Positions 20,136-59,256 of a stretch of DNA of 64,000 bases are shown in pieces. The position numbers were made by a program, and so were the translations under genes. The stretch comes from Leucoraja ocellata (Eukaryota). Numbering within the stretch: position 1 is the stretch's first letter; every line of letters starts with the position of its first letter. The notes beneath the pieces were generated by a model that saw only the letters and a program-made list of their open reading frames with translations, was not told where the DNA came from and did not search any database. The stretch lies in assembly GCA_036785375.1 (NCBI GenBank), contig JAWMAR010000531.1, positions 310,001 to 374,000 of the forward strand. The letters run 5' to 3'.

Positions 20136-20186
20136 GTGGGATATTATTCACTAATCATTAAATTTCTAAATTTAATCTGATTCACT

Positions 20187-22460: not shown

Positions 22461-22499
22461 AATTATCAAAGTAAATTGCTCCTTCACCATTTGCTCCGA

Positions 22500-37842: not shown

Positions 37843-38110
37843 AGGGTGGCACGGTGCATCAGCAGAGTTGCTGCTTTAACACCAGAGACCCGGGTTCGAT
37901 CGTGAATACAGATGCTGTCTGTATGGAGTTTGTACTCTGTGGTGGGTTTTCTCCGATTTCTCCCACATCCCAAAGACATGCAGGTTTGTAGATTCATTGA
38001 CTTCTGTAAATTGTCCCTAGTATGTAGCTCATAGAAATAGTCTACTGCTCAGCGGGGACTCGCTGGGCAGAAGGGCCTGTTTCCACATGGTATCTCTAAA
38101 ACTAAAACTA
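37843..38110 (+). mobile_element. HE1/V-SINE
   Basis: A/B boxes, V domain, GAAGGGCCTGTTTCC...CTCTAAAACTAAAACT tail. Confidence 0.9.
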
Positions 38111-38494
38111 GAAACAAAATGCATGCTATTCCCTAAACCTCGCATTCTACTTTGGAGTTCAAAGCTTCTTGCATTCCCTTGGGTAGTCCCTTCCCACATT
38201 TCACGCTGGTCTATTATCTTCATATGGTAAAATGTGAATGACATTTGGAGTAACCTTTTATTTCTAGAGGTTCCCTATCCTTAGCACGTTAGATCTGTAG
38301 AAGCATCCATTGAATTGCTTTGGAGGACGCCTCCAGGTGAACACTGCAGAGGTGCAAGCTTGTATCCAGGTCTGGAGATTGGGACGTGTCACACTCGTTC
38401 TTCACTGGCTAGCTTTATTGCTTGACTTGGGTAAAGCTGCCAGTTGAAGAGCTGTTGTGGGCGGCCATTTTATCGTTGATGGCTTCTGCTAAAC

Positions 38495-38594
38495 ATGCAA
38501 CGAACTTTGCCAAGAGAGGAGTTCCGGCACACGACATTATCTGTGGGCGAACAAAATGATCACCAGGACCTTGTTCAAAAGGAAGCGCTGCCAG
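38495..38594 (+). CDS. Weak candidate first coding exon (MQRTLPREEFRHTTLSVGEQNDHQDLVQKEALP-)
   Basis: ATG with A at -3, 33 open codons, strong donor CAG|GTGAGA (phase 1), YY1-like GCGGCCATTTT at 38461. No homology recognised. Confidence 0.25.
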
Positions 38595-38804
38595 GTGAGA
38601 AGTTTGTTTTACCACCTGAACCTGCTCTGCAAGTAACTGTTCCAAACCATTATCTCCCTAGAAGCAATAGGTTGGAAGAATGTCAATATCTGATCTGGTG
38701 CGGTTAACTGAAGATCCCAGACACATAGAATGCTCCTTTTTACACAGCAACACAGAATGGAGGGCCATGTTCCATTGAATTGAACAAGTGATCTGTAAAA
38801 GGAT

Positions 38805-38942
38805 CATAGAGTCATACAGTGTGGAAACAGACCCTTTAGGCCAACGTGCCCAAACCGACCAACATGTCCCAGCTACACTAGTCCCACCTGCCTGCATTTG
38901 CCTAATATCCCTCTAAACCTATCTTTTCCATGTACCTGTCTG
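38805..38942 (-). mobile_element. CR1 3' tail
   Basis: TCATAGAGTCATACAGTGTGGAAACAG...CCCACCTGCCTGCATTTG. Same family as 61680-61870 and 62938-63235. Confidence 0.85.
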
Positions 38943-39360
38943 ACTGTGAAAGTTGAGGGAGGGAGTGATAAGGGATAGGGCGAATTGGTGGGAGAAGAGG
39001 CATGGGGAAGTTCTCTAATTGTAGTATTTCTGTGCAGCTGATTCACACCAGTATTTTTCTGCATCTATTTAATTATTTGCATGATTGATTCTTGCATGTT
39101 GTTATATTTTCAACAGTGCCTCTTCTGTTAACCTTGTGTTGAATACCACAATGGAGCTGAATGCACTGCTCCCGTCCATGGACTCTAATCGTAAAACATT
39201 AAAGAGGAATTTAGTTTGTCAGCAGTTGCCCAAGGCCTAAACTCTGCCACACCTGGTCCTCGGCTCAGAGAGACTGCGAATACTCGATTATAATAACCTC
39301 ATGGAAACTGCCAAAAGGACAGTCGTGAGTCATGGTCTTTGTTCTGCTGTTCAATTAAGC

Positions 39361-39566
39361 TAGAGGTTCCCAACCTTTTTTGTCCCGTTTACCCCTGGCA
39401 ACTTCAATAGCACATAACTATGTTATTTCACTTATTTATGAACAACTAGTGATGAACAGATATACCAGAACCAAACACAGTCAGTCAATGAGAAAAAATA
39501 TGTACAAATCCAGAATCAACAAATTTACCCCCTGGGGGTAAATTTACCCCAGGTTGGGAACCCTTG
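39361..39566. mobile_element. hAT (Charlie-like) MITE
   Basis: TIRs TAGAGGTTCCCAACCT / AGGTTGGGAACCCTTG; 8-bp TSD AATTAAGC / AATTAACC; subterminal TTTACCCC repeats. Confidence 0.85.
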
Positions 39567-39744
39567 AATTAACCCTGATAAATGTAGTGTTTGATGTTTC
39601 TGTTGTATTAAGGTATTATTTGGGGCAATTCCCTCTAATTTGGATTTTTACAGTTAAAGGTTTTCTTATATCTTCCTACTTTTTCATTTCCATTCTATTC
39701 TCCAAAAATATTAATTTTGTAGATTCTGACAAATAATCTTTGCG

Positions 39745-40003
39745 GGAGCACCACCACCAGAGCTGCCACCTCACAATGCTTGAGACCCGTGTTCAATTCC
39801 TAACTCTGATGATGTCTAAGTGGCGTTTGCAGTTCTCCCTGTGAGCACGTGGGTTTCGTTCAAGTGCTCTGCTTTTCTCCTGCATGCCAAAGACTGGTAG
39901 GTAATCAGGTTAGACACAAAATGCTGGAGTAACTCAGCGGGCCAGGCAGCATTTCTGGAGAGAGGCAATGGGTGACATTTTGGGTCGGGACCCTTCTTCA
40001 GAA
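39745..40003. mobile_element. Degenerate HE1 SINE plus PLE terminal repeat
   Basis: SINE head and V domain at 39745-39910; PLE repeat at 39911-40003 ending in TTCTTCAG. Confidence 0.75.
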
Positions 40004-40635
40004 TGAATTGTTTTGGTAATAATTGGGTAACAATCAGAATGTTTTGTTAATTTTACGTGAAGGAGAGTACAATTGATGCTTATGGTTGTTTTGTGGTCAA
40101 ATTGTACATCTTCAGATGAAGCCTCAGGCCGCCAAAGTGATGTTATCGTGGGAACAGAGGGAGAAATGGGAAGGAATTATCCAGGACTGTGTTTTAAATG
40201 GAGAGACAGGAGCTTCAGGTTGTGTATAAGAATCTGTAAATGACAGTAGGTCCTAAGGAATGTTGAACATTCCTTCTCTTGCCATAAAGAAATCCATGAT
40301 CCATGGGAGGAGGATGGGAAATTATTGTGTAGGAATGGGAAGTCCAGTGAAATATGCGATGCCGTAGCCAGGCATAGCAGTCAGGGGTTTGAAAATTGCT
40401 GCTGGCCTGAATGATGGTAAGAGTTTGAACATTCTCCAGATATTCTATTGACATAACATGGGTGGTTTCTTGGGATAGGAGTTTTACAATAGCATCGTAA
40501 TGTGCAGTCAAAATTTGTTGGAGGAAGCTTGTAGAGAGGGGGGTAGACACAAAGTGCTGGAGTAACTCAGCGGGACAGGCAGCATCTCTGGAGAAAAGGA
40601 CTAGGTGACGTTTCAGGATGAGAGCTCAGTAGTGG

Positions 40636-40698
40636 GTCCAGTTAGCTCAGTTGGTTTGAGCATAGTGCTAATAACACCAAGGTCGTGGGTTCAATCCC
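40636..40698 (+). pseudogene. tRNA-Ile(AAT)-derived pseudogene, 3'-truncated
   Basis: GTCCAGTTAGCTCAGTTGGTTTGAGCATAGTGCT-AAT-AACACCAAGGTCGTGGGTTCAATCCC aligns to vertebrate tRNA-Ile(AAT), mostly with CpG-decay changes. Anticodon at 40670-40672; 3' acceptor strand missing. Confidence 0.85.
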
Positions 40699-40714
40699 AC
40701 TCCCTAAGGTGAGA

Positions 40715-41047
40715 GGGGCAACAGTAGAGTTGCTGCCTTATAGCACCCGAGACCCGGGTTCGATCCTGACTACGGGTGCTTGTCTATTCAGTTTGTACAT
40801 TCTCCTTGTGATTGCATGAGTTTTCTCCGGATGCTCCCATACTCCAAAGATGTGCAGGTTTGTAGGTTAATTGGCTTCTGTAAATTGTCCCTAGTGTGTC
40901 GGATAGAACTAGTGATCAGTGTCGGATAGAACTAGTAATCAGACTTTGGCCCACAAAGTCCATGCCAACTAGTAATCAGTGCTCACCAGTCATCATGGAC
41001 TTTGTGTGCCAAACTATCTGTTTTCACTGTATCTCTAAACTAAACTA
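40715..41047 (+). mobile_element. HE1/V-SINE with internal tandem duplication
   Basis: B box CCCGGGTTCGATCC, V domain, duplicated GTGTCGGATAGAACTAGT, (CTAAA)n tail. Confidence 0.9.
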
Positions 41048-41954
41048 AAGGAATAAGGAATAGCTGTTTTGTCCCAAGATATGTTTGATTTACGATATCT
41101 ACCGCCATACTAAGCTGTAAGGAAAACAAATACTTCTGAGGTTGCAACAGTATAAACAGGAAAGATGCCTGTTGTGAGATATACAGGGCCCAGCCCACAA
41201 TTCCACCAAAAATATGTAATATAATCAGTTCCTTGCAGACAGTGGAAGGAAAGATTAATCCGTGAGGTCTGGCCATCTGTCTAATCCAACTGGGGGGATT
41301 CATATCACATTATCACTTTGTAAATAGACCATTGCAACTGTTTGATTGCTAGATAATGTGTTCTATATAGATTCACTCATCAGTGTAGAATCAGTAGAAA
41401 GTCCCAATAATAAACTTGCTTTGGTTTTAACACTTGCTTCTTTTGAAATCTCAGGGTATATTTTTGGAAGGTGCAAGAGACCTTAATATGTTCTTACCTC
41501 CCTCCTCCCTTCCCCTTTTCCAATAGTTTACATTCTTCCTCCTCAATATCAATGAATGCATCACACTTCTTCTGCAAAGACTAATGTAAAGTTCAGGCAG
41601 TAGAAACAACCACTGCAGAATGCTGTGGGTCAGGCAGTTTCTCTGGTGAAAAAGGATGGGCGACATTTCGGGTTGGGACCCATCTTCAGATCAGGAGAAG
41701 CCCCTTCTTCAGACCCCACCTATTCCATCTGCCCATCCATCACCCCCACACTCTTCTGACTGAGTTGCCTACGCTCATTGTTCCCATCAGTGTATGCTAC
41801 CTCCCATATTAGGTTCCATGTTTTATCTTCCTTTCCTCCAATTCCATCATCCACCTCCCCTTTGTTGCCTCCACCAAGCACCCACTTACACTATTCCTAT
41901 ACCACTTCTATTTTATTCTTTCGCAACCCCCTCAACCTGCCCAGATTCTCCTGC

Positions 41955-42140
41955 ACACAAGGGGCAATTCACAGTTGACTAATTAAACTACCAACTCGCT
42001 CGTCTTTGAGTTATGAGAGGAAACTGGAGCACCCAAAGGAGTCACAGTCCGTACAGTCACAGACAGCACCAGAGGTCAGAATTGAATTGGGGTCACTCAA
42101 GCTCTGAGGCAGCAACTCCACCAGCCGCTACTCTGTAACG
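41955..42140 (-). mobile_element. Degenerate HE1/V-SINE
   Basis: Reverse-complement V domain (CGTCTTTG...AGGAAACTGGAGCACCC) and head (GAGGCAGCAACTC). Confidence 0.8.
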
Positions 42141-42269
42141 CCCCTTTTGAGCATTACTTAGTCTATAGTTAATATTAACATTGAGGATAGCTGAACCTTG
42201 ACGGACTGCAATCCGACAACATACCTGGGAAGCCCATGAATAATACAACCTGCATTTCTGTAGCATTTG

Positions 42270-42530
42270 AAGATAGACACAAAATGCTGGAGTAACTCAA
42301 GCGGGCCCGGCGGCATCTCTGGAGAGAAGGAATGGGTGACGTTTCGGGTTGAGACCCTTCAGACTAGTCGGGAAAGGGAAACGATAGATATAGATGGTAG
42401 AGAGATATAGAAGAAATGAATGAAAGATATGCAGAAAAGTAAACATGATAAAGGAAACAGTCTATTGTTAGCTGTTTGCGAGGTGAAACAAGGTGAAATG
42501 ATGATAAGGAACAGGCCATACTGTGATGTC
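42270..42530 (-). mobile_element. PLE terminal repeat plus UTR
   Basis: GAAGATAGACACAAAATGCTGGAGTAACTC...GGTGACGTTTCGGGTTGAGACCCTTCAGAC; hammerhead core has a 3-nt deletion. Confidence 0.8.
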
Positions 42531-43064
42531 AGCTATAGGGGATATTCATTATGAAAAATGGCACATTGAGTAAAATAGCAGAGGGGTCCAACAGACATGA
42601 AGCAACATTATTTTAGGAGAAATTGGAAAAAGAAGAAATGTTAGCGTGAATGGGAAGTAATATAGATGAAGCTAACCTTTTAAGTAGTTTAGGGTCTATG
42701 ATAATTATGTTTCTCCATCCATTGAGACCAACAGCAGTTCAGTTTTGATTGTTGCGGGCCAGTGTTGTACCCCAGTCTGTCTGAGGATGATGGGAAGATG
42801 GTTTGAGAATTGTTGCGTTTGCTATATAAAGATTGGAGGAGTGAGTCAGAACACAAAAGCAGCAGGAAAGCAATTAGTCTCTCGTGTAATGAAAGTAAGA
42901 AGGAGTGTCAGAGAAAAAGATGGTAAAGAACACTGCGTTCAACTTAAATATAAAGATCCTGCTATCTTATTTGAATTCTTTGAATAAACAGGATGTGAGA
43001 CTGGTAGCAGTCATTTTTAGAAATGATTTCACTGCTCCTGCTTATAATAGTGAATTCAGGATTA

Positions 43065-43370
43065 GTTTTAGAGATCCAGCATGAAAACAGGCCTTTCAGC
43101 TCACTGACCATCGATCACCCATTCACACTTGTTCTATATTATTCCACTTTCCCATCCACTTGTTACAAACTAAGGGCAATTTACAGAGGCCAGATAACTT
43201 AACCTACAAACCCACATGTCTTGGGCATGTAGGAGGAAACCAGAGCACCAAGAGGAAACCCACATGGACACGGGGAGAACGTGCAAACCCCACATAGAAA
43301 GTACCCAAGGTCAGGATCGAACCCGGGTCTCTGCTCCTATGAGGCAGCAGCTCTACCAGCTGCGCCACTC
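43065..43370 (-). mobile_element. HE1/V-SINE
   Basis: Reverse-complement tail, V domain, GGATCGAACCCGGGTCTCT B box. Confidence 0.9.
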
Positions 43371-44149
43371 TGCATCAGGGTTCCTTCCGAATTGTATGAA
43401 AAACAATGCATTTCACTGTACCGAGGTACATGTGATGATAAAGAATCACTGAATCTTCATGTTAGGGTCACAGATACATCTCGCATATTATACTTAATTA
43501 TCAGTACAGTATTTTAAGATTTCCGTGGTTTGCCAAATTTAATACCGTTTCCAGGGAGTCTAGCTTGAGATTGAGATCATAATGACAGTGTTCCATTCCT
43601 ATATTGTCAACTTATTATTGCTCACCTGAGGCCAGAACAAGATTTATCTGCCTACTGGGTGTTAAATTGATAACTTTCTTAGTTTGCGGCTTACTTTGAT
43701 TGATATTCGCAATCTGGGCTCAACAAATGAGTTCTTAACTGCGGTCCTTCCACATACGCACAAAACGATCATTCCCGATATCCCTAAAGTCTACATATTG
43801 AAATCTGAGTTGACATTGTTTGAAATTCTTGATATTTATAATTAAAATTCAGAAAACTGTCAAGATACCTGCTTTGAACCCAAGCAAGTAAACACTTGGT
43901 CAGAACCTGCAAATCTACAAGAGATGAAAGCTCATCGGCTATCTGCATCCTTGAACTTATTCATTAAGAGAGAAATAACTCTGTCTGGGACACAGTAGAA
44001 TTTTATAGAGATTTAATTTTTGAAACCTAATGGTGGTGAACTAAATAAAATGGTTCCTGTATGATGATCAAACTTGAAAATGCTGGCTGTTTCGGTCCCA
44101 CTGGAATTGCTGGTCACACATGTAGTAGTGAATTCAGCTAAACATAAAT

Positions 44150-44380
44150 GCATAGGAAAGAACTACAGACGCTGGTTAACACAAAAGATAGGCACCAAAT
44201 TGCTGGAATAACACAAGAAAAGGTGTCGTTTTAGGGTCAGACTGAGAGTCAGGGGAAAGGAAAACTTCCTATCCTGGGCCTCATCCACTGTCACAGTGAG
44301 TGAGAAGGTAACTATGTTATACGGTTTCTCCAGAGATGCTGCCTGATCGACTGAGTTACTCCAGCATTTTGTGTCTTTCT
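44150..44380. mobile_element. Inverted PLE insertion with short ORF remnant
   Basis: Minus-oriented repeat at 44150-44260, ILGLIHCHSE remnant at ~44270-44300, plus-oriented repeat at 44325-44378. Confidence 0.7.
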
Positions 44381-45654
44381 AAGCAAATGCATTCTGAACT
44401 CTTGAGTTACTCAGCCTGCACAATCAATTCAAATGCTGAAAGACATTTCTCTCTCGGGCGTTGAAAAAGGTAGAAATACATTTGAAATTTTCTGAGACAC
44501 TTTGTCAATCTTCCAAATCTTGAAGGATTGCTGCACATTCCTTTAACTTCACTAAGTGGTCCAATTCTCAGAGAAATGACTTTACAAACTGTTCACTCCT
44601 CCCATGCTGATGTTCAAATCAGCCTCAGTGGGCCTGAGAAACCGCATGCGACTGACTAGTAGAAGAACAGGACTGCCAGCAGCTTCGTGGAATAATCACG
44701 TTGTATTCCCTACGCTTGACAGGTTACACTGTGACGCCCAAGTAATGCCAGCACTCATGTTACTGAGGTGACAGTGGTAGTAGCCACTATTAGGGCTGCC
44801 TCCCCAGGATGCTGTTGGACCATGCAAGGAATCAATGAAGGGATGAAGCCATTGCAGAATGCAATGTTGCTGTGACATGGCCGGGAGGAGTGCAGTTTGA
44901 ATACTGAACCGGCCCTTCTTTTGGAAATGTCTGTGTGTGCCTCTGGAATTAATGCAAAATAACTTTGCTTAATGAATTAGTGTTGTATGAGCCTTTAAAA
45001 TTCATTTCAGTGAATGGAGCAGGCAAATGGGACCTCCATTTATCCGCATAGCATAGTTACCTTCACAAAGACAGCTGAGTAAAGGTCTTAAATGGTGTAT
45101 AGACCTCAACAATTATTTCTGACAATCCAGTATGTCCCAAAGCTGCACTTGGGTGTATCAGCCTGTTTTTGTCAAGAGCATTGAACAGAAGGCTCAACTG
45201 ATGAGGTTCAGTTTGTAAAAGGGGCCGTAATAATTATGACTTTTTCTGTACTAGTTCCTACGTTTGTCTTCCCTTGCTGCAATGTTCAATTGGCAGAATG
45301 AGGCAGAGACTCTAAACAATCCACATCGACCGGTCAGGTGTCTGGCTTTGATTCAGTCTGCGCCCAAAGCAATAAATAGCTATCCGGTGACATCCTGATT
45401 TAACATCTCCGTTGGTCTGTTCCATTGCCAATAACTCCTGGTAGAGGACCTGTATCTCCAAACAAATGTGGTGGCAGCATTAGGATGGCATACTGTTAAT
45501 CATGTCACATCACAGGTGACTGATGAAAGAAACTGCACTGTAAGGCGACAGTGAGATATGAATTTGTGTGGCCTTTGCAAAATTGACCACAAATTTTGCT
45601 CTCAGCAGTTGCTGGAGAATAAAACATTTGTTAACCAGCATCCACTGTCAAACA

Positions 45655-46130
45655 CTTTTTACTTTAGACTTTAGTGATATACTGTGGAAACAGGCCCACT
45701 GAGTCCGCTGCGACCAGTAATCATCCCATACACTATCACTAACCTACACACTAGGGACAATAGGATAGGCTAAATTAAGCTTTGTGGCTTCAGCCTATTC
45801 CTTTTTCGGTCATTGATTATGTGAACGTTGTGTGAAATGGATACAGTGTTGGTTCATATTTATACAGATTGTAAAGTTTTGTTCTTTTTAATGTATGACC
45901 TAAATAAACTGTCCATTCATTCATTCATTCAATTTACAATTTGCTGAAGCCAATTAACCTACAAACCTGTACGCCTTTGGAGTGGGAGGAAATCGGAGCA
46001 CCCAGAGAAAACACATGCAGTCACAGGGAGAACGTACAAACTCCGTACAGGCAGCACCCGTAGTCAGGATCGAACCCGGGTCTCTGGTGCTGTAAGGCAG
46101 CATCTTTACCGCTGCTCAACGGTGCCGCTG
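45655..46130 (-). mobile_element. HE1/V-SINE interrupted by a ~170-bp plus-strand insertion (45762-45930)
   Basis: SINE tail at 45655-45761 resumes at 45931. Insert ends AATAAA...(CATT)n. Confidence 0.88.
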
Positions 46131-47149
46131 TAACATTACCTTCTGCCCTCTGTTAATTTTCATCCAAATGGATTGGATCATGTTGTTTTTGTTCTTGGCA
46201 TGTGGTGTTTGGCCTGTGATAAGAGAACAAGCTCATCTGTGAAGTCAAGGCGTTCAAGGGAGGGGAGTGGTGTCCACCTGTTGCCCTCTGGCATGTTTCT
46301 GTTGCTAAGCATGTCACCCAAGCAATGGCAGCATTAATGAGAACTGCAGACATGACTCACTCTGACGCATTCCTGTTTTGACTGCAAAACCGAGCTCACA
46401 GTGATCAACATCACGTTTACAGTAGCAGCTTTTGATGATGTTGATTAATATCAAGAGCCTTCTCATTTCCCTGCAAAACATCCGGCAGGCTGGTCGTGTG
46501 AATGCTGTTGAGCCTTCTCAAGGTCCATGAGTTTATATTGGATCGTTCCCTTATGTTTTGTGAAGATCTGGTCTTTGCTTCACACTCTTTCTGAGAGCTG
46601 GCTTGGTCTTATCTTAGAATGCCGTCAGCTACCTCTGATGTGCTCTGGACTAGGGGCTTGCAGAAAACCCTGCTCGGCCCCTTAACCAGCCATCCAAGCA
46701 GGCCAGCTATGAGAATCATTGTAGTCATCTTCACTAAGCTCCCATTAATCAACTCATCTGTTACCACCTCCATTTCCCAGTTGGGCAATAGAGGGCCCAG
46801 GGGCTGCTAGTTCCAATTTCCCATGAACAACGTTTTGTCAAGTTGTCCATGTCAGGAGCCTTCCTACTTTTCAACGAGTAGACAGTCTGGACAGTCTCTT
46901 AATTCATGTCTACTTGCTCCACAATTACCTACCCCCCCCCCCCCCCCGATGACCCTATCGTTCTCTGTGAAGATCCTACCCTGGCTAAACTTCACAAATG
47001 CCTTCACCTCACTTTCCAGAATGAACCCATTGCTTGGCCCGCTTGCTCAACTGATCAAAGACGCTGTAATCATTGAAAACCATTTTTGCTGTCAACGATA
47101 CCACCTATTTTCATGTTATCTGCAAACTAACATCTCATCCAAATTGTTT

Positions 47150-47470
47150 ATATAAACCACAAACAAGAATGGGCTCAGTACCGATCCTTCAGGCACACCA
47201 CTAATCATATAGGTCTCCATTCTGCTTCCCTCCATGAAGCCAATTCTATCTCCAGGAAGCTAGCTCTCTCTGGATCCCATGCAATCTAACCATCCAGAGC
47301 AGCTTACCATGCAGAACCTTATAAAAGGCCTTGCAGAAGTTCATACAAACTACGTCTACATCCCTGCCCGCGTCAACATTCCTAGTTATTTCTTCAAAAA
47401 AAAATCCTGAGACACAATCTCCCACATATAAAACCATACTGACTATCCCTAATCAATCACATGATCTCCC
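47150..47470 (-). mobile_element. CR1 RT fragment
   Basis: FFEEITRNVDAGRDVDVVCMNFCKAFYKVLHGKLLWMVRLHGIQRELASW. Confidence 0.9.
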
Positions 47471-47709
47471 AGGACACAATTTCCTACCCATAACATTAGA
47501 CACCTCTCCAGTGTCTAACACTGATTCATGTGTCTCAGGTAGGACTCTTGCAATTTCTTCTCTTGCTTCCCACTGTGTCCTGTTCAGGCATATCTACATC
47601 TTAGGATGTCCTAAGAACATGCCTTAATATGGAGTGTCCCCAATGCATCTCCATTAACTCTCCCAAGTTCCCTAGTCTTCATGTTCTTCTCTGAGGTAAG
47701 GATTAATTG

Positions 47710-48102
47710 ACAACCTTAATCATCAGCCATCAGGTTATTAAAAGCTACAACCCCCAATAAGCTCTGAACTACATAGACTATTATCGTTATTATTGAACTA
47801 TTATTGTTTGTTTTTTATGTATAAGTATGTGTGCGTGTGTGTATATATATGTAAGATAGACCCAAAAAGCTGGAGCAACTCAGCGGGACAGGCAGCATCT
47901 CTGGAGAGAAGGAATGGGTGACGTTTCGGGTCGAGACCCTTCTTCAGACACACACATGTGAGTATATGTACATCCACTGAAATTTTTTTCTTATTTATCA
48001 TATTGTTTATAGTACTATGTTTACATATTCCATTCTGCTGCTACAAGTAAGAATTTCATTGTTCTATTTGGGACATAAAACAATAAAACACTCTTGACTC
48101 TT
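47710..48102 (+). mobile_element. Rex1-like 3' UTR with a PLE repeat inserted into its TG/TA microsatellite
   Basis: CAGCCATCAGGTTATT...CAAGTAAGAATTTCATTGTTC...AATAAAACACTCTTGACTCTTG; PLE at 47852-47949. Confidence 0.7.
47920..47947 (-). ncRNA. Minimal type-I hammerhead ribozyme motif, intact core
   Basis: Minus strand CUGAAGA-A-GGGU-CUCG-ACCC-GAAA-CG-UC^ACC. Predicted cleavage between 47920 and 47919. Confidence 0.75.
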
Positions 48103-48686
48103 GTCAAACTCCTGTGGCTCCACACACAGACGGCCACTTTGGTTTCTGAAGGGCCCTATTCTGATTTCTTCCTCTGGAGGGTTTGGAGCGAGTCATTAAT
48201 TTGCCGTTTAAATTTCTCTCTGCAAAGTGCTGTTGTGGATCCTCACTCGTTGATTATATTGAAGGCTGAAGCAGATCGAGGCGGAACCTATGGGTATGTG
48301 GGAAAGTGGCCTACGTTTGATGGGCTGAATGGCCTCTACTGCTATATCCTATGCCCTTTAGGCAGCCGTAATATCTAATTAAATAATTTTGATGCAAATC
48401 TCGTAGATCTATTCGTAAGAGTTTTATGTTTAAGCAGTGCTCGATTTGGCATAGAAGCAGTCCATTAGGCATTGAAGGGTTAAATGTGTCAAACCTGTAC
48501 TTGCTGCTGACAACGTTTAGAAAGCATGAGGACAAGCAGGTCCTAAAACTCGGACAGGAGATTAGGAGCAACTAATGAAACAACTGCAAACCGTCTCCAA
48601 CGTGGGTTGACTGGGGATGTACTGCTGTCCGCCCACAGATGTGACTGCAGTCAGAGAGTTGTCAGGCCACTATTTATATTTAACCT

Positions 48687-48990
48687 CATAGAAACATAGA
48701 AAATAGGTGCAGGAGTAGGCCATTCGGCCCTTCGAGCCTGCACCACCATTCGATATGATAGAAACATAGAAATTAGGTGCAGGAGTAGGCCATTCGGCCC
48801 TTCGAGCCTGCACCGCCATTCAATCTGATCATGGCTGATCATCCAACTCAGTATCCCATCCCTGCCTTCTCTCCATACCCCCTGATCCCTTTAGCCACAA
48901 GGGCCACATCGAACTCCCTCTTAAATATAGCCAATGAACTGACCTCAACTACCCTGGCAGAGAATTCCACAGATTCACCACTCTCTGTCA
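48687..48990 (-). mobile_element. Young CR1 3' end with tandem 70-bp duplication of its tail
   Basis: ATAGAAACATAGAAA.TAGGTGCAGGAGTAGGCCATTCGGCCCTTCGAGCCTGCACC begins at both 48688 and 48758. Confidence 0.92.
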
Positions 48991-49789
48991 AAATAAGCAG
49001 TGAGGCTTGTGATCTTCAGATTCACACGAAGTTTGACCCAGTGTCCCATTTTTTACCTTCATGTTTGTTCTGATTTAAAATCCTACCCAGTTCCAGTTCA
49101 CCTGCATCAATGTACCTATTCTGCAATGCAGGGAAATATTTGTGCTTGCCTTGATTTACAAGAGGTACTGAATTAAATGGAAGTTAAAACAAAATTAAGT
49201 TATTTTAGTAAAATTTGCTACTTTAAACACAACTCTGGTGTTCGTCAACTATTTATAACGAGTTAGTCAAACTCAATAGCAAAATATCCAAGTTGGGATG
49301 TTACCTAATTGTTAAAAAGGGATGTTAAAGATTCAGGATAAATAAAAGGTATACATTTCATTTAAGTGATTAACACTGCCTGGTTTGTGAATGTTTTAAA
49401 TGATCATGTTTCTAGACTAGAATGGTAAAAATCTTACAGGTCAGCCGGTGATGTGGCAATCTCCAACTACAGAGATGGGCAACAATATCGATGAAAATAA
49501 TACAGCTCAGTATCTGTTGCATATTGATCATTGAGGGTCAGTGGGAAGTTTAAATTTGCGGGTACATAAATTCAATGACGCACATGGCTTTGAGACAAGT
49601 AACTTGCTTGTCAGTGTATGTTGTGAGAAATTTAAACTAATATTCAGGACTGGAGCAGAGTGCACTTGTCGTGTGGTGGAAGCTGCAGCACTCTCACAGT
49701 CTGAAGTGGCCAGATTGAGACCTCAAACAGGAAGATACTAATTGAAAGCAGGAACTTGGTCCAATAATTCAGCAATGCTGTGCATTCCA

Positions 49790-50180
49790 AGGGGCGTGGA
49801 GGTTTAGCTCTCCAGCTGCAATCACCCCCCTCCCCCCGCCCCCCAATAACCAACTTCTACCTCGCCCACCCTCTCCTCACTCTATTCTCTCCACCCTCCT
49901 TCCTCCAGCTTCGCCTCAGCACTCCCCCCCTTCCTTCCTTCCTCCGACAACTCTCTTCTCACTGCCCCCCCCTCCTCTTTCCTCTGCTCCTCCCCCCTCA
50001 GTCAGCACTAACTGGACGCAGCGCTCCCATTAATGAGAGCTGAGCGTGTGTTCTGCGCCCACTGGCTTAGCTGCATGCTTGCTGTTTAATGTAACCCTCA
50101 CCTTTGCCTCAGTGCTGATGAGAGTTGTCCGTGCACGGGTTTCTCTATCTCAGCACTGCCATTGAAAACTTTAATCAGGT
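49790..50180 (+). promoter_or_regulatory. Possible second promoter / regulatory element
   Basis: GC boxes GGGGCGTGG (~49791) and CCCCGCCCC (~49834) with adjacent CCAAT, ~170-nt C/T-rich tract, locally retained CpGs, no recognisable repeat. Confidence 0.4.
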
Positions 50181-50487
50181 TTGTTTTAAATAGCTGCCTC
50201 GCATCTCTGAGGGATAGCTTCCAATTTCCAGTCTTCCTTACTGACTCCCTGAATGAGATTGCTCAGGCCATGAGCTGAACGCAGCATTTTACATGCTGTT
50301 GGTTTGTAACTAGGCCAAGGTGATCCCATTACTCATTTTCCTCAGGCCTCATGCTGCTGTCTGGGAAAGAAGGTTTTAATCCCATCCCTGCGGAGTAACT
50401 TCCAACCGTGATTCTTTAGACCCACTTTATAACACCTTGCTCCCATTCTGACAGATCTTCTCCAACTGATTTAATAGCAGCTTGAAG

Positions 50488-50915
50488 TTCCAAGGTTCAA
50501 AGGTATTTTATTGTCATGTGTACCAATTAAGGTCGAGTGAAACTCGTATTACCCATACAGCCGTACCAAACAAACTACAACCACATAAAAGTTAACATAA
50601 ACATCCACCACAGTGGATTCCCCACACTCCTCACTGTGATGGAAGGCAATAAAGTTAAATCTTCTTCCTCTTTGTTCTCCCACGGACGGGGCAGTCGAAC
50701 CATTCACAGTCGGGGCCATCAAAGCCCCCGTCAGGATGATCGAAACTCTCCGCAGCATGGAGCTCCCGAGTCGGCCTCTTCGTACCAGAGACCGCGGGCT
50801 TCCAAAGTTAAAGTCCCACATACTCCCGCCGCTTGGAGCGCCGGGTCGATCTCCAGTAAAGGCCGCCAACTCCACGATGTTAGGCCGCAGTGCGGACAGA
50901 TTTAAAAAAAAAAAT
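50488..50915 (-). repeat. Unclassified CpG-rich retroposon (same family as 33660-33866)
   Basis: Tail GGTTCCAAGGTTCAAAGG-TATTTTATTGTCA on the plus strand; shares core with 33660-33866. Confidence 0.7.
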
Positions 50916-51242
50916 CCAACATGAACAGTAATATTTCAGAATTGGATATGTGAAGAGCCACAATGTGAATTTGACCAAACAGTCAGACTGGTGTGCTTCA
51001 AATTAATTCTGGAGTCTCCAACTTTCAAGGTGTCAGAATGAGTAGTTTTAAATGAATTATTTACATTATGATTTTGCGGTTGGATGGAAGAGAAGACGGA
51101 CTTGCCTTTGTTTACTTGTGTGGGCTAACACACGTCTGGTCACTCCCACTCGATACTACTCCCAGCCACTGCCTCCTGTATAATGAACTTATATGTTATG
51201 CTGTATCTCTCAATGCCTACGGTTCTGTTTGAGGTTTAAATT

Positions 51243-51330
51243 AAGGGTCTGAAGAAGGGTCTCGGTCCATTCCTTCGCTTCAGAGATGCTGCCTGTCCTG
51301 CTGAGTTACTCCAGCTTTTTTGTGTCTACA
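51243..51330 (+). mobile_element. PLE terminal repeat, hammerhead partly deleted
   Basis: GGGTCTGAAGAAGGGTCTCG then CCATTCCTTC...GATGCTGCCTGTCCTGCTGAGTTACTCCAGC. Confidence 0.8.
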
Positions 51331-51750
51331 CAGTAATTATATTTCCTAATTCAACATTCATGTTCATCGCTGGAGCCATTTTTTAATGCTACAGAGTAAT
51401 GGAAGGATGAATTTTTAGCTTCAATAAGGTGATTTTCCCCTGCTGTTTTGTCCTCGTTTCATGATTTAGGATCCATTTACTGTCCCTTGGAGTAAGCTCG
51501 GTTAATGTAAATGGTGTAAGTCACCATCTCTGGCCATGGTGGCATTAATTTTGTTCTTTATCTTGCAATGTGAAAATTGTCCAGAAGCTGAATGTGATTC
51601 TGTTGTTTGAGGGGGAAAACTAGACTGAAAATATTACTCTAGCAACTTGCTGTGATTGGAGATGGAGAGTACTTTCATCTTAAACTGGTTATTGGGCTTG
51701 AGGGGTTTAACCTGAAAATGGAACCTGATATTGTAGGGGTCTGTGTTTCA

Positions 51751-51874
51751 GAAGGAACTGCAGATGCTGGAAAACCGAAGGTACACAAAAATGCTGGAGA
51801 AACTCAGCGGGTGCAGCAGCATCTATGGAGCGAAGGAAATAGGCAACGCTTCGGGCCGAAACCTTTCTTCAGAC
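51751..51874 (-). mobile_element. Short PLE-derived element (family 2)
   Basis: Near-identical to 16085-16206; hammerhead GAAA mutated to GAAG. Confidence 0.85.
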
Positions 51875-52149
51875 AACCACAAATGTCTCACAAGGTGACA
51901 TGAAGGAGGAGGAAGATCTTTAAGGCAAAGATCGATGGGTTCCTTGATAAGCAAGTGGATAAAAGCTTACCACAGATAGAAGGAAATTACAGAGTTAATA
52001 TTATAGCAAGATTAACCATAATCTTAATAAATGGCACATTCACGTGGAGCTAAATGACCTACTCACATTCATAATGTATGTTCAGCTGATCTTTTACTGT
52101 GGCATTAAAGAAACGTTGAACTGCAGCCCACATTTTAAACTATAGGTTG

Positions 52150-52290
52150 TCGTTATCTCATTGCTGTTTATAAGAATTTACTGCATACAAATTGGCTGTT
52201 CTGTTTTCTACTTCACAACAATGACCACAGTTTAGTCTAAAAGCACTTTGAAAAAGGACAGAAGTCGTACAAGATTTAAGTTCTCTTTAA
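52150..52290 (+). mobile_element. DeuSINE-like 3' fragment
   Basis: TTATCTCATTGCTGTTT...CAAATTGGCTG...CACAACAATGAC...AAAGCACTTTG. Confidence 0.55.
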
Positions 52291-53254
52291 TTTTAACAGG
52301 ATTCCAAAACGATTAGCATAATTGCACTATCAATATTACCACGTTTTGCCTCGCTTGGTCCTTTTTATTGTGTTAGATGCAGAAACACGCTTGCCAGGAT
52401 CAGCAGATGTGCCGCTCGAGGAACATAATGTCATCTGAAAGAACCCCATACAGGACTTTCTTTTTATAAAAAAAAGTACATTTCCCATTATTGCTTAACA
52501 GATTTACTAGAAACCACACCAATTCCTTTTAGATGATCAGAATGTGCAAGAGCCTTGTCTGGGTCATTGTGTGACCATCAGTTTCTCAATACAGTGAGCC
52601 GTGGACCCAACAGGATAACATTTAGAGTCAGTCGCTCTTGTCAACAAGGGGTCAGGGAGAAACATGCAGTAGAGGCCATATGCAATATAGGGTTGAGTGT
52701 AGGCATGGGCACAGGCAAGAAGACCTGATACCCTTCACCTTCATTGGCACACTTGAGTAAGGAACTGCTTTACTTTTGGATGTTTGGTGAGTCCCCATGT
52801 GGAGTGAAACATGGAGTTGCGAGGCTGATCTTCTGCTCCAGGCATTGCTGTCTTTCAAAATTGGAGACCACTGCCTTGATTCAAGAAAGACAGCAGCTTG
52901 ACCATTCTGTACTAAAGTGCGTGCTGCTATCCCCTCCTTGTCCCACCATCCCTCTCCACACAGCACAACCTACTGCTGGTGAATTTGTACTACAGAAAGG
53001 TCTGTCCAACTGAGCCACTGAGATCTGTTCCAAGCTGTGGCTTTGCCCAGGGCACAGGGTCCACTGGCAGTTTGCACTATGTGCCTTTGCCAAAGAGCCA
53101 AGACATGTCACCTGTCCTGAAAGACAAAAGAAACCCCCAAGGGTCATTATTGCCCCATGTAGCCATCGTCTTCAATAAAACTATAACTGCTGTGCAGGAT
53201 ATTTTCCAGCAAGTCTTAATTTGCACCCAGTTCTCTAAAGAACTGGTGTCAGTT

Positions 53255-53520
53255 GTACCATAGTTGCCTTTGAGTTAGAAGATTGTGGGTTCAAGTCTTA
53301 TTCCAGCCTCTCGGGTGCATAACCAGCTGAGCATTACAATGCAATTTTGACAGGATGTTGCACTGTTGGAAATGCCACCTTTCAGATATGAACATAAGAC
53401 ACAGGGGCAGAAATAGGCCATTCGGCCCATCTTCTGCTCCACTATTTGATCATGGCTATTTTTCCCCCTTAACTCCATTCTCCTGCCTATTCCCAGTGAC
53501 CTTTGATGCATTTACTAATC
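53255..53520. mobile_element. DeuSINE-like head (+) followed by a CR1 tail (-)
   Basis: GAGTTAGAAGATTGTGGGTTCAAGTC...GCACTGTTGGAAATGCCACCTTTCAGAT, then GGGGCAGAAATAGGCCATTCGGCCCATC. Confidence 0.65.
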
Positions 53521-54360
53521 TAGCTCACTCTCACATAAACATAATAATCCATGACATGATTAGATCCGGATATCTGGACAAATATTTATCTCAAAACGTA
53601 GCACATTGCCTTTTGTTGAACCTTGCATATTGGCTAAGTTGGGTCCCCTTAAAAGTCACTAAGTTACTGCAAACAATTCAAGGGCATTAGGATGGATTCT
53701 TCACAGAAGGAATATCAAATCGCAAACTGCACGACCCAAAGAGCAGACTCCTAACTTGTTATCGCGACTGACACTTTGTGATCAGAAAGCCCATAAAGAC
53801 TTGTGTCTCATGTCAGCCAATCTGCAACAAAATGATTCATGGCTACCATGGAGGACAGAGAGAATGGAGTAGGAATACAGAAGCACCAAAGTTGTCACAG
53901 AGAGAGAGACAAAGAATGGCAATAAATTAAATGTACATCTGGAGGGATAACCCACAAATAATGGAGCAATACTGGGAAGAAAAATTAATGACAGATCAAA
54001 AGATATGTAAAGTCTAAACGCTCTTCTTATTCATTTCCACCCCTCCTACACACCTCGAGCCCAACTCTTCACACCCCCATCGTAGACAGTTGATCACTAT
54101 AGATGAACATTTATTTAATACAAAGGGATTGATGTTGTATTATTCACTGAGGACACGAGGGAAGCTCCCCCTGGGCACCGTCCATCAGGTAGGCAAGGAG
54201 AACCCAACGCAAGCAGAATACACTTAGGTGCCCATTAAGTGAGTTCTTCAGCAGTTAAATTCTCCAGAAATTATTCTTTGGTGGTTTAAGAACAGACTGC
54301 ACAATTTAGGATCTCTGGTGGAATTTGGAGCAGCCTTGTCAAGGGGCTGTGTTCCTTGTG

Positions 54361-54572
54361 TTGTAGGAAGGAACTGCAGATGCTGGTTCACACTGAAGTT
54401 AGACACAAAATGCTGGAGTAACTCATCAGGTCAGGCAACATCTCTGGAGAAAAGGAATAGGTGACGTTCTGGGTCGAGACCCTTCTTCAGACCCTGAAAA
54501 CCCTTCAGTCTGAAGAAGGGTCTCAACCCTAAACGTCGCCTATTCCTTATCTCCAGAGATGCTGCCTGACAC
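54361..54572. mobile_element. Head-to-head inverted PLE repeats carrying two hammerhead motifs
   Basis: Minus-strand motif at 54463-54490 and plus-strand motif at 54510-54537. GCTGTGTTCCTTGT duplicated at 54346-54359 and 54573-54586. Confidence 0.85.
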
Positions 54573-55832
54573 GCTGTGTTCCTTGTTACTGCCAAATTGC
54601 TTCTGATGATCGCCTTGTGAGCTTCAGTTTATAATAGGATGACTTGAAATCTGAATGCGGACACAGAATGGAAGTGCCCAGTTAATTTTTGCGATTGTTG
54701 TGATTTTATCCAGAAAGTGTCATTCGTGCAATTTGGTTCGGAGTTATATCAATTCGGAATCAGTTGGCATTGGGGAAACCCAGCACCAGGAGAGTCATTT
54801 TATAGGCAAATGTCGTGATTTTGAGTGCAGTCAGCAGCTGATCCCAGTTCAAACACTTAGCAATGGTAGCTAAAGACAAATGCTTCCCCCCCCCCCACAC
54901 ACGCACACATTTGCTAACCAAATGACTCGTATTGCTCGTCCTGCAACAGGCCACCTACAAATTAAAAGACAACATTTTCACTGGAGGAAGATTACATGCA
55001 CATAAAACGTGTACAAGCATGCAACAATTCAGATAGAAACTGCTGATCCATCAGTCTTGTGACTAAACACATCTTTCCAGCAGTGGCCATACTTTTACCA
55101 ATGGTGGATGAGTTATATTAAAGAATAAAACTACCAACTACCTACCAGCCATGATGTTCAAATATCCTTAAGAACGAGAGCACAGAGGAGGAAAAAAGAG
55201 ATACCTTGAGATGAGCATTATGTGACTACATTATAACTACTAAACCACCCCAATGTCGCATATGCCCTTTCTTGCATGCAAGGCCTCTAGATGTGGCTAC
55301 TGCAACATTACACACTGCATCTAGAAAGATGCTCACATTTCCATCTCTGCCAGTGTGTTGTCTACTCCAGCCTTTTAACCAAAACTGGATAGGTGTATGA
55401 ACAAATAAAACTGATGAACCATAGAAAAGCGACTGGGCCATCGCGCCTCGGCAGTTGAATCACGATGGCTCATGCATCACAATTTAGGCAGCACTTGTCC
55501 ACCAGAACCATGCAACCTCTTGGGAAAGGTGAGGACATATCAGTTTAAACATTTAATGCAAGTTATTGGGTAATTTTAATGCACCCCATCAGACATGATC
55601 CACTTCTTTCACGTCTTTATTGACATGGGATGCATCATTAGATTTGGAAATAGGGAAAAGGTTAGCCAGTAAAAAAATTAAATAAAAAAGTTTCTATTTA
55701 ACATGTCATAATTCAGATTGATTTTTGTTTTCATTTAAACTATGACGGGAGACAGCCCGAGTGGAGCTCTCTCTCCCCTTCTCCATTCGACAATCCCCTT
55801 CTGAATTATCATCTGTCCATCTCCTCCACAGA

Positions 55833-56328
55833 TAGGGTTGCCAGCTTTTTCACTCCCAAATAAAGGACAAAAGGTCAAAATAAGGAACAAATTCCCAACG
55901 GCACTTAGTTGACCGACTCGGCCGTGGCTGGGTGAATGATGAGTTGGGCCGGGTGCTGGACTGCACACAAAGCCCAGCCGGTGGGGCCAGCTGAGGAGTT
56001 TTGGCCCGCACGAAGTCCAGCACCCCATCCAACGCATGAACCGATGATCGGCCATGAGAAAGGAGGGGTGGTGATGTCGGCGGTAAGCGAAGGTCGGCCA
56101 GCTGGCTGGGCTGCCGACCAACACGGGCGAGACACTGCTGCTGCACTCCATGGGCTGCATTACGTCGGGACGGGTGAGGCAGGGTTGGACACGGCGCTCC
56201 GACCCGACAGTCCCTTCGTCCCGAGTAGTAGCAGTTAAATACGGGACAAGGGCGGTCCCATGTGGGACAAACCAATTTAGCCCAAGATATGGGATGTCCC
56301 GGTTAATAAGGGACAGTTGACAACCCTA
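55833..56328. mobile_element. hAT (Blackjack-like) non-autonomous DNA transposon
   Basis: TIRs TAGGGTTGCCA / TGACAACCCTA; perfect 8-bp TSD TCCACAGA (55825-55832, 56329-56336); subterminal GGGACA repeats; inserted into a PLE repeat. Confidence 0.92.
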
Positions 56329-57494
56329 TCCACAGATGCTGCCTGACCCGCTGAATTCCTCTAGAACCTTGTTTATTTGTTCAAATGGGATCGGTGGGCA
56401 TCCTGTTTAAACTAGTTGTATACATGAGAGGGTTTGTAACGTTACTTACTCGACATCCCTTTTCTTGATTGTCCTCCCAGATGCCATGACCTCTGCTACT
56501 TTAGACACAATGGGGTCATAGTTCATGCTCGACACGGCAATGACCTCATCGCTCCTGGAGAACGAAAACACAAACGTTACCCAATGTTCTTTTATTATTT
56601 ACCATTTTGTTTTGTGAAAGACACATGGAAGATCAAGGACGGTGAAAGAAGACAAACATCGTTAGTTATCTATCCTTGTTTGGCCTACAACAATGTACCA
56701 CGGAGAGAAAGGAAATCGGAGCAGTCTTGCCGATGAGCCCTCATTTTGAAATTCATCTCGTTGAAGATGAACAAATGAGCTTTGGTCTTAGTCACCAAAG
56801 GAAACTTGTGATTCTTATGTCAGAGTCTTGTGAAAGATCAGTGTATACTTTCCAGAAGTGTGCTGCTGTTCAAGTAGTCAAAATTGTATTCCTGGGTGTT
56901 ATATAGGGCTACTGGAGAAGCTCAGTGGATCAGGCAGCTACAGTAGAGTCAAGGAGACAATTGAGGGAGAAGAGAACATAAGGAATGCAGATGACTTCAT
57001 TGTAGCACAGATTGGCAGCCATTCGGCCCAGGAGGTTCATGCCAGCTCTTTGCCATGTTAGATTCCGTAGAGTAGGACGAGAAACCTTGGGCCCAATAAT
57101 GCTATTTCTGCACTACACATTTAATCTTCTGCCACTATCAGCCAAAATTCAAAACAAGAACATAGTTTTGAACAGTCTTCGTTTTTTTTTTTTACACACA
57201 AAAAAGTACAATTACCAAAATTAGAGAGTACATATAGAAGTATTAATATCAATATTGGTGAAACATGATCAGCAGGAGAAAGAAAATCACAGTTGGATCT
57301 AAACTGTTTGCAAGGACACACCTACAAAGAAAATGACATTGTACCAGACGATTGAATGTTATATTATTGTTAGGGTTAAACACCGTGATCATGCAAAGAC
57401 AAGAAAATATCGCTTGAGCTCTGAAGAATCTGGGAAATGTAATTGGCAGGAATTATTTTAAAAAAATAAAGCAGATAAATAACAACATACAAGG

Positions 57495-58395
57495 CATGAT
57501 TGGTAAGTTTGCAGTTGACACAAAAGTGGGTGCTATTGTAGATAGTGAAGGTGGTTGTCAAAAATTGCAGCAGGTTCTTGATCGGTTGGGCAGGTGGGCT
57601 GAGAAATGGTTAATGGAGTTTATTTAATGCAGAGGAGTGTGAGGTGAGCATTTTGGGAAGGCAAACCAGGGCAGGACCTACATGGTGAATGTCAGGGTGC
57701 TGCAATAGAGCAGAGGGATCTAGGAGTGCAGGTACACAGTTCCTTGAAAGTGGTGTCACAAGTAGATAGGGTGGTGAAGGTGGCTTTCAGCACATTGGCC
57801 TCCATCAGTCAGAGTATTGAGTATAGACATTGAGAGGTCATGTTGCAGTTGTACAAGATATTGGTGAGGCCACATTTAGAGTATTGTGTTCAGTTTTGGT
57901 CACCCTTTTATTGAAAAGATGTTGCTAAGCTGAAAATGGCGCAGAAAAGATTTACGAGGATGTTGCCAGGACTCGAGGGCCTATAGGGAGTGTTTGAGCA
58001 GGCTAGGACTTTATTACTTGAAATGCAGGTGGATGAGGAGTGTCTGACAGAGGTGTATAAAATCATGAGGGGAGTAGATAGGGTAAATGTAGTCTTTTAC
58101 CTAGAGTAGATTAAATTGAGAATCAGAGGATATTGGTTTAAGGTGAGAGGGGAAAGATTTAATAGGAATCTGATGGGCAACTTTTTTTATGGATATATGG
58201 AACAAGCTGCAGGAAGAGGTCGTTGAGGCAGGTACTATCACAACATTTAAGAAACCTTTAGACAGGTACATGCAATGGATAGGTTTAGAAGAATATGAGC
58301 CAAACGCAGGCAGGTGGGACTGGTGTAGACAGGGCATATTGTTTGATGTGGGCAAATTGGGCTGAATGGCCTATTTCCATGCAGTACGACTCGAC
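57495..58395 (+). mobile_element. CR1 LINE 3' part
   Basis: GKFAVDTKVG (decayed FADDTK), LVRPHLEYCVQFWSP, RFTRMLPGLEGL, CR1 tail. Confidence 0.93.
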
Positions 58396-59148: not shown

Positions 59149-59256
59149 ACACAATCTATGTAACTGGCTTCATACTGTCAAGAGAACTCAATGGAAAGGA
59201 CTATGAGTTGCTGAGTACAGTGGGTGGTCGAATTGATCCGATTAGTTACGCGGCAG
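59149..59256 (+). CDS. Weak candidate 108-nt phase-1/phase-1 exon
   Basis: CCTAATTCCTATTTCAG| ... GCAG|GTATTC; one open frame (D)TIYVTGFILSRELNGKDYELLSTVGGRIDPISYAA. The acceptor lies in a decayed CR1 tail. Confidence 0.2.

Follow-up and report, generated by a model that had tools for sequence, protein, structure and literature searches.

The 64,000 nt stretch of DNA analyzed here (the window) contains an abundant family of dispersed repeats which carry a minimal type-I hammerhead ribozyme motif. The most complete motif is found at 47920..47947 on the minus strand. It is highly probable, in our opinion, that these repeats are the ends of Penelope-like elements (PLEs), whose individual copies are passengers in the genome.

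Hammerhead motifs in the window

A pattern search of the 64-kb window for the exact motif finds two sites, 47920-47947 and 16179-16206, both on the minus strand. They are the two intact cores that an earlier sequence-only reading had pointed out. A generic minimal-hammerhead pattern has four matches (5878, 16179, 41662 and 47920), all on the minus strand, and a mean of 0.02 matches in 100 dinucleotide shuffles. A script that requires the core and at least 3 bp of helix II gives three matches (16206, 41689 and 47947, counted at C3), compared with one match in 20 mononucleotide shuffles taken together. When at least 2 bp of helix I are added, only 47947 (counted at C3) remains. Since all copies come from a few masters, these controls show that the repeat is real, not that the motif has independent origins.

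Covariance models from Rfam do not detect any hammerhead family among the 18 matches up to E=10 in the window. The Rfam hammerhead models describe canonical forms, not minimal ones. Three of the matches (plastid-psbJ, mir-9186 and mir-1296) are below their own thresholds and fall on head-to-head units of the repeat. Scans with longer-copy patterns give no match in metagenome contigs and none in viral contigs. A single match in a bacterial genome (L001:2575-2600) is attributed to chance; it only fits the degenerate pattern, with no hammerhead site or repeat around it.

The copy at 47920..47947 has C3 to A9 at 47947-47941, followed by an extra A. Its helix II has 4 bp, opened by G10.1-C11.1 and closed by a CUCG loop. 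Then come G12-A15.1, the palindromic C15.2/G16.2, U16.1 and C17 (47920), and the predicted scissile bond lies between 47920 and 47919. It is the only copy in the window with all these features plus a helix I of 2 bp, so one of the 21 hammerhead-spanning copies is complete. Judged by its sequence, it agrees with every item of the published consensus, including three features outside the published descriptor, which supports its earlier assignment to the minimal type-I hammerheads of PLE pseudo-LTRs. An additional nucleotide following A9 and a palindromic stem III, both given as known in the sequence-only reading, do belong to this consensus (PMC4209133), in which stem III has no loop.

No core defect is found in the copies at 47920, 16179 and 41662, and all three keep the core and helix II. 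The copy at 16179 has an intact core, but an inversion junction on its upstream side leaves helix I with an A.G mismatch where it should close; its cleavage triplet is GUU. At 41662-41689 the core and helix II are intact, the extra nucleotide is U, positions 15.2/16.2 are U.G and helix I has 1 bp.

When the copies are aligned, the nucleotide inserted after A9 is A (or U). The 10.1-11.1 pair is G-C in 10 of the 16 aligned copies and a standard pair in 14 of them. Positions 15.2/16.2 are complementary in 11 of the 13 copies inspected; core defects are common among these 13, and G12, which is part of a CpG, is hit most often. The CUCG, UUCG, UCCG and CCCG loops and the change from U-A to U-G described previously are all seen. 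Pairing over the 16 aligned copies amounts to 85.7% of cells in helix II and 56.3% in helix I. In the consensus, mismatches begin after the first 2 bp of helix I, which makes it as short as the shortest published examples (from 2 bp upward). The claim that stem II stays paired across subfamilies holds as far as pairing is concerned, but covariation does not exceed that of shuffles: the score is 0.156 against 0.146 +/- 0.024, and 152 of 500 shuffles reach it. Changes in helix II are mostly one-sided, from U-A to U-G, and the test has low power because the 16 copies are closely related.

The repeat family

A single repeat family, with a size of about 95 or 125 nt, holds the focal site and all 16 other listed sites. 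The family model, obtained by iterated nhmmer, has 122 positions and starts at C3. It gives 41 matches at E<=0.5 and 31 at E<1e-3, with none on the reversed window. Together, the 31 matches account for 4.1% of the window (2,604 bases); 21 of them extend into the hammerhead region. This represents one copy per 3 kb, slightly denser than the one per 4 kb estimated from sequence alone. The same estimate had included 16 positions regarded as mutated. All 16 correspond to a recognizable copy, but the one at 41662-41689 has an intact core and helix II; the copy near 12328 is a weak match (E=0.096 in nhmmer).

The 3' ends fall in two classes. Among the 27 listed, about 15 copies have short ends (model positions 91-97, approximately) and about 12 have long ends (approximately 122-130). 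The tail is therefore an optional segment of about 30-35 nt. Target duplications are present at both edges in five of the 20 units examined, with sizes of 16, 14, 11, 10 and 7 bp, and in the other 15 there is no target duplication above chance. As a control, 9 of 2000 random window pairs reached a direct repeat of at least 10 bp, none of them longer than 12 bp.

There are three head-to-head units, with the tail on one arm only, and the junction is palindromic in two of them. The unit 16085..16229 (minus strand, subfamily B) has a long tailed arm (16085-16206) and an inverted short arm (about 16207-16229) with an internal deletion. Its junction is a CAG/CTG palindrome overlapping C3, and the 16-bp target duplication lies at 16069-16084 and 16230-16245. 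In the unit 54360..54572, the long tailed arm (minus strand, with G12>A and A13>G) is joined to a short arm (plus strand, with G12>U) between 14-bp duplications (54346-54359 and 54573-54586). The unit 7668..7832 has a long tailed arm (minus strand) and a short arm (plus strand) joined at the stem-III ACGT, without the 5' half of the core. Its 11-bp duplication is found at 7657-7667 and 7833-7843.

The longest insertion (5780..6279, minus strand, 500 bp) lies between 10-bp duplications at 5770-5779 and 6280-6289. It has a tail and a pyrimidine-rich upstream tract which ends in CAG just 5' of helix I. Its hammerhead (5878-5901) has a 4-nt deletion in helix II, and the insertion is broken by a piece of another repeat (about 6059-6161), related to 4481-4590. 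The 7-bp duplication corresponds to a fragment with a 3' end and tail at 14123..14173 (plus strand).

The focal hammerhead is part of a tail-less solo copy (47853..47949, minus strand) inside a TA/CA microsatellite-like tract. It lacks a clean target duplication: there is a repeat of 8 bp, but 13 bases away from the edge. Several other copies on the minus strand deserve mention. The copy 41614..41689, which contains the intact core and helix II at 41662-41689, has an inverted purine-rich piece upstream. The region 33133..33451 is a partial tandem of two copies 209 bp apart, with broken cores (G8>A and G12>A; A13>U); this one and the pair at 5665/5901 are the only close same-strand pairs. A subfamily B copy with a tail (51751..51874) has A15.1>G and G10.1>A. 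Short-form copies are found at 39905..40003 (G12>A, CpG decay), at 42263..42620 (a 4-nt core deletion, and an extension upstream that is rich in pyrimidines but differs from the one in the 5901 copy) and at 17771..17900, the 5' limits of the last two being approximate. In the latter the core is intact (N7=G), helix II is mismatched, 15.2/16.2 are not complementary, and a pyrimidine tract with CAG lies upstream. Decayed members detected by nhmmer are dispersed over 5135..63970, for example 5272, 8401, 11387, 12329, 25378, 29776, 30085, 44322, 51249 and 56326 on the plus strand and 5664, 40625, 44215, 60962 and 63970 on the minus strand.

Several copies continue upstream into differing pyrimidine-rich tracts, some of them with YAG beside helix I. 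The upstream pyrimidine fraction is 0.78-0.88 at 5901, 17861, 33242 and 42360, against 0.50. No tandem arrays of the unit with complete hammerheads are found in the window. Folding z-scores of seven copies do not show any consistent stability: one is -2.75 and the others range from -1.0 to +0.9.

We should also note a short motif at family positions 74-81 and 105-113, approximately (for example in 54367-54490, minus strand), about 15-20 nt before each 3' end. It is complementary to a segment near position 50 (about 48-55), and two alternative long stems, present in some of the predicted folds, could define two starts of reverse transcription. In several copies an open frame runs through most of the sense module, such as 47847-47947 (minus strand); it has no Pfam or protein match and is probably due to chance.

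Related organisms and RNA reads

The region 38300-48300 was compared, at 85% likeness, with four of the 24 listed sequencing runs: DNA from organisms B, D and E, and RNA from organism B. The region is present in runs of six coded related organisms. The DNA runs give 640,495-826,608 contig records each on it, all repeats there taken together. In the bin of the focal copy the summed depth is 7.9-8.7 million, against about 20-70 in unique bins; it is not a copy number. This depth shows that the family is very large in organisms B, D and E, and agrees with the abundance proposed from the window.

A main boundary of loose ends lies at 47949; past it, other copies continue, but with mixed sequence (agreement 0.34-0.40). 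In B, D and E alike, there are contigs that join opposite strands at 47949/47950, and contigs that have the tail as a loose end. The 41614-41689 copy is bridged by contigs of these three organisms at the orthologous site, with flanks that differ by about 1-7%. Since it is common to three related species, this copy is old. For the copies at 40001, 40625 and 42360, the contigs end within the repeat, after 21-31 of its bases, a sign that the relatives may have these copies too. The focal 47920 copy lies outside every listed contig piece of the relatives.

The RNA run from organism B was prepared with oligo-dT, and about 5% of its reads were used. In total 92,164 reads were placed, 1,087 of them with at least 99% likeness. 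The repeat is abundant in this poly(A) RNA, with a mean depth of about 2,300-2,500 per direction in the focal-copy bin. Both directions are about equal, and 90% of the reads continue into sequence that does not match, which indicates that they derive from copies at other places. The depth is zero in 8 of 30 bins, which correspond to unique sequence and include the mir-22 bin.

Other features of the window

The window is vertebrate-type DNA, with a CpG observed/expected ratio of 0.36. The presence of this repeat would point to a cartilaginous fish as the host, probably a skate or a ray. Pfam does not find any host protein domain in 300 of the 306 stop-to-stop frames of at least 60 aa. A mir-22 precursor is found at 38382-38465 (plus strand), with 75.2 bits in Rfam against a gathering score of 48. 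No differences among the related runs are listed inside this precursor, and several flank it. Two CpG-rich stretches (6200-6900 and 3000-3800, with observed/expected about 0.75 against 0.36) are candidate promoters, perhaps of a mir-22 host transcript; the 500-bp insertion described above abuts the larger one.

A tRNA-like fragment at 40643-40700 (plus strand) has 33 bits, above the Rfam threshold, and lies 17 bases from the 40625 copy. ARAGORN does not find any tRNA gene in the window, this fragment included, which is a candidate tRNA pseudogene or head of a tRNA-derived SINE. Repeated 3' fragments of LINE-type reverse transcriptase are found at 9761-10529, 19430-20125, 30888-31830, 36160-36627 and 4458-4639. 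Other dispersed repeats of 150-300 bp are located at 12688-12890, 20192-20453, 20964-21340, 37849-38041, 38803-38947, 40715-40914, 43085-43374, 45930-46127, 58091-58392, 61679-61878 and 62939-63227. Wherever the related runs cover these repeats, they are very abundant there as well.

Probable relationship with Penelope-like elements

The anatomy of the family suggests that the repeat is the 3'-terminal pseudo-LTR module of PLEs. According to PMC3846280 and PMC8557442, Penelope elements have head-to-head pseudo-LTRs, junction palindromes, a 31-bp optional tail and duplications of 8-10 bp. In the Anolis PLE, PMC11167929 describes two internal start sites of reverse transcription, which define the tail, and the nicking and extension of both strands. 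Our family shares with these endonuclease-bearing (EN+) elements (Penelope/Poseidon and Neptune) the head-to-head arms, the junction palindromes and the tail on one arm. Other features in common are the target duplications (7-16 bp here), 5' truncation, a partial tandem and insertion in a microsatellite. Unlike the Anolis element, our family has no ATG at stem II. In D. virilis Penelope an intron ends at helix I (PMC4209133). The YAG found beside helix I in some of our copies resembles this intron end and, by analogy, might act as a splice acceptor.

The PLE link rests on structure, since no PLE reading frame was found. No GIY-YIG domain is detected by Pfam in the 300 of 306 stop-to-stop frames (at least 60 aa) that precede the last six, located beyond about 62.6 kb. 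Two weak RVT_1 matches (19430-19747 and 30888-31517) are away from the repeat family. A search of the translated 5783-5980 piece against longer proteins gives no match, which is weak evidence from one search. As the copies are truncated, the absence of a reverse transcriptase or GIY-YIG frame is expected. The 5' end of the 500-bp insertion (about 6240-6279) might conceivably be a remnant of the last codons of a PLE endonuclease: about 12 frameshifted codons resemble it when compared by eye with the alignment in PMC8557442, which is no more than a hint.

The following steps would account for these observations. In this vertebrate genome, the repeat would represent the 3' pseudo-LTR module of Penelope-like retrotransposons that have an endonuclease. 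In the master elements, this module would carry a minimal type-I hammerhead kept by selection. The cleavage that a minimal hammerhead can achieve is weak and limited to tandem dimers, which form by means of the ACGU palindrome, probably with the help of the element's protein. The endonuclease of the element would nick both strands 7-16 bp apart. If the process is similar to that of PMC11167929, reverse transcription would start at either of two internal sites about 30-35 nt apart, giving short or tailed 3' ends. An early stop, or the joining of strands at palindromes in or beside the hammerhead, would produce solo or head-to-head fragments. After insertion, the copies would decay neutrally. 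An origin of the copies from cDNA of cleaved RNA was considered and rejected: none of the 31 matches starts at model position 29, the cleavage site, and the 7776/7777 junction retains bases 5' of the site.

A separate non-autonomous element of small size (similar to a SINE, a MITE or a retrozyme), with a fixed 5' end at the hammerhead and amplified in trans by PLE enzymes, is unlikely to explain the family as a whole. Such an element would agree with the 13 of 31 matches that begin at the first model position, but the model starts at C3, so longer copies are also counted there. The absence of a pyrimidine-rich upstream tract in about 11 of the 18 copies that reach C3 is also in its favor. On the other hand, several copies do continue upstream into differing tracts, and one insertion bounded by duplications is 500 bp long. 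The strongest loose-end boundary in both RNA and DNA runs, 47949, might be seen as a fixed end, but it is explained by inversion at a palindrome. Retrozymes derived from pseudo-LTRs appear in one chondrichthyan genome, according to bioRxiv 10.64898/2026.07.22.740005, but our family has no tandem arrays and its hammerhead is minimal, not canonical. This alternative only differs from the PLE pseudo-LTR explanation in the RNA template, and it may hold for part of the family.

Decay of the copies and capacity for cleavage

Decay was studied in the 15 of 21 hammerhead-spanning copies that reach C3; in the six left out, the 5' part is truncated or deleted. This choice creates a bias toward intact 5' cores. 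Non-CpG cells of the core differ from the majority in 8 of 146 cases (5.5%), against 110 of 689 for all downstream positions (p=0.0006). When only positions that do not mark subfamilies are considered, 52 of 550 differ (9.5%), and the comparison with the core is not significant (p=0.14). At CpG positions 27 of 112 differ. The 11-nt core is intact in 5 of the 15 copies, where neutral decay predicts 4.2. In a comparison of four subfamilies, which were separated by eye and have 2-7 copies each, the core varies at 1 of its 11 positions and the rest at 27 of 77. The direction is that of the earlier expectation of a core better kept than its flanks between subfamilies, but the difference is not significant (p=0.16). 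The pattern fits a core selected in the master elements, and copies that later decay neutrally. The lower mutation of the core even in dead copies (5.5% vs 9.5%, not significant) counts against this explanation.

Cleavage had been proposed to need two copies. Stem III can indeed form only between copies, but the 4-bp duplex has a computed energy of about -1.7 kcal/mol, which makes it implausible that dimers form in trans. On its own strand, 47920 is separated by 6.3 kb from the next intact core, and where two copies of one strand do lie close together (209 and 236 bp apart), their cores are broken. For 47920, 16179 and 41662, which keep both the core and helix II, the predicted hammerhead fold is 8.0-13.2 kcal/mol above the minimum-energy fold, and the predicted probability of helix II is at most 0.01. 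In all three, the purine-rich core is predicted to pair with the pyrimidine tract that immediately follows the cleavage site (P 0.52-0.94). The same predicted pairing is weaker (0.0-0.5) in two defective copies.

Published results point in the same direction. The minimal motif of S. mansoni does not cleave as a monomer and cleaves weakly as a dimer, and solo copies are the usual state of minimal hammerheads (PMC4209133). Very low rates even as dimers are given in a review (PMC6765202), and one of nine Xenopus dimers was cleaved according to bioRxiv 10.64898/2026.07.22.740005. The Anolis PLE hammerhead cuts only with protein, and cutting is dispensable for insertion in vitro (PMC11167929). From these models and results we infer that the individual copies, 47920 included, are probably catalytically silent passengers.

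It is therefore very unlikely that the copies form a working ribozyme repertoire, in which solo copies would pair in cis or in trans, or be opened by a PLE protein, and cut host transcripts, sense copies inside genes being selected against. The energies and fold probabilities given above, and the published cleavage (nil for monomers, low for dimers; PMC4209133), are contrary to it. The core is intact in five of 15 copies and less variable than the rest, as a repertoire would lead us to expect, but the intact fraction equals the neutral expectation. All four descriptor matches and 15 of the 21 hammerhead-spanning copies (p=0.078, with no control family) are antisense to the mir-22 hairpin, as are 9 of 11 downstream of mir-22 (p=0.065). 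The 15 of 21 could hint at selection against sense copies, but the strand bias relative to the hairpin is not significant (p=0.065-0.096), and retroelements in general show an antisense bias. In organism B, the poly(A) RNA is rich in reads of the family, but no pile of read starts or ends is found at any cleavage site in this RNA run, where the only pile is at 42110. This test is weak, as poly(A) libraries are fragmented and a pile had to reach one fifth of the depth. The lack of end piles would agree, by analogy, with the Anolis result (PMC11167929).

The density of copies had been taken as a sign of a very large hammerhead repertoire, and this interpretation is not supported. Most copies are solo, old and decaying at a neutral rate. 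Three keep the core and helix II, one of these also has a 2-bp helix I, and none has an intact tandem partner.

There is a similarly small chance that the copies are autoinhibited switches forming the densest vertebrate complement. According to this model, the 3' pyrimidine tract would pair with the purine-rich core until the element's protein opens it. If so, young sense copies would make host transcripts cleavable whenever the element is expressed, and the antisense excess around mir-22 would be explained.

Finally, it is extremely improbable that the motif resembles a hammerhead by accident in a repeat of some other class and was spread with it. In favor of such an accident, the shuffle controls test the repeat and not independent origins, covariation and Rfam hammerheads (up to E=10) are absent, and helix I is weak. 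Against it, the copies match features outside the published descriptor (the nucleotide after A9, G10.1-C11.1 and the palindromic 15.2/16.2), the carrier independently shows PLE anatomy, and subfamilies with upstream tracts that cannot be aligned still have the core in common.

Known systems and significance

Minimal hammerheads in the pseudo-LTRs of metazoan PLEs were described by Cervera and de la Pena in 2014 (PMC4209133). Our family has in common with them the CUGANGA-H core, G10.1-C11.1, GAAA, the palindromic 15.2/16.2 without loop 3, the NUH site and a short helix I. The predominance of solo copies, the opposite-strand pairs and the presence of several sequence families per genome are also shared. 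A difference is helix II, with 4 bp here and often 5-8 in their motifs. The class was already regarded as known in the sequence-only reading, and rightly so: the motif class, its solo dispersal and the insertion anatomy have all been published. Figure S3 of the same paper includes 56 motifs from 40 species, some with a 2-bp helix I, and none from cartilaginous fish.

Non-LTR retrozymes, as described in PMC7229834 and bioRxiv 10.64898/2026.07.22.740005, are also non-coding, PLE-related, dispersed as monomers and provided with a type-I hammerhead. They differ from our family, whose hammerhead is minimal and not canonical, without tandem arrays of intact ribozymes or evidence of circular RNA. We have found no literature on this repeat family in cartilaginous fish, in a search that covered publications other than Repbase and Dfam. 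The nearest report refers to retrozymes in one chondrichthyan genome, in the 2026 preprint (bioRxiv 10.64898/2026.07.22.740005). Its retrozyme families may include this repeat, which may also be catalogued already in Repbase or Dfam.

Three strict matches in 64 kb (about 1 per 21 kb) correspond to about 100,000 when extrapolated to a 2.2-Gb genome, the assembly size of the little skate (PMC10115646), taken here as a yardstick. This figure is uncertain several-fold, since it comes from one window and three events. Published counts of minimal hammerheads are 4,000 in coelacanth and 9,000 in Xenopus tropicalis (PMC4209133). For retrozymes, a section title of PMC7229834 gives up to 120,000 copies in axolotl, and sharks and skates are not mentioned in its available part. 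The density found here may be a record, the highest among vertebrates if the window is typical.

In summary, a known class of PLE hammerheads is extended to a lineage missing from the 2014 survey. The family also provides a large natural sample of PLE insertion junctions, with two start sites, a tail on one arm and palindromic joints. This sample could be used to test models of PLE integration and the role of the hammerhead. The finding would carry more weight if the whole genome were as dense in copies as the window, and if intact sense copies in host genes proved to undergo cleavage or negative selection.
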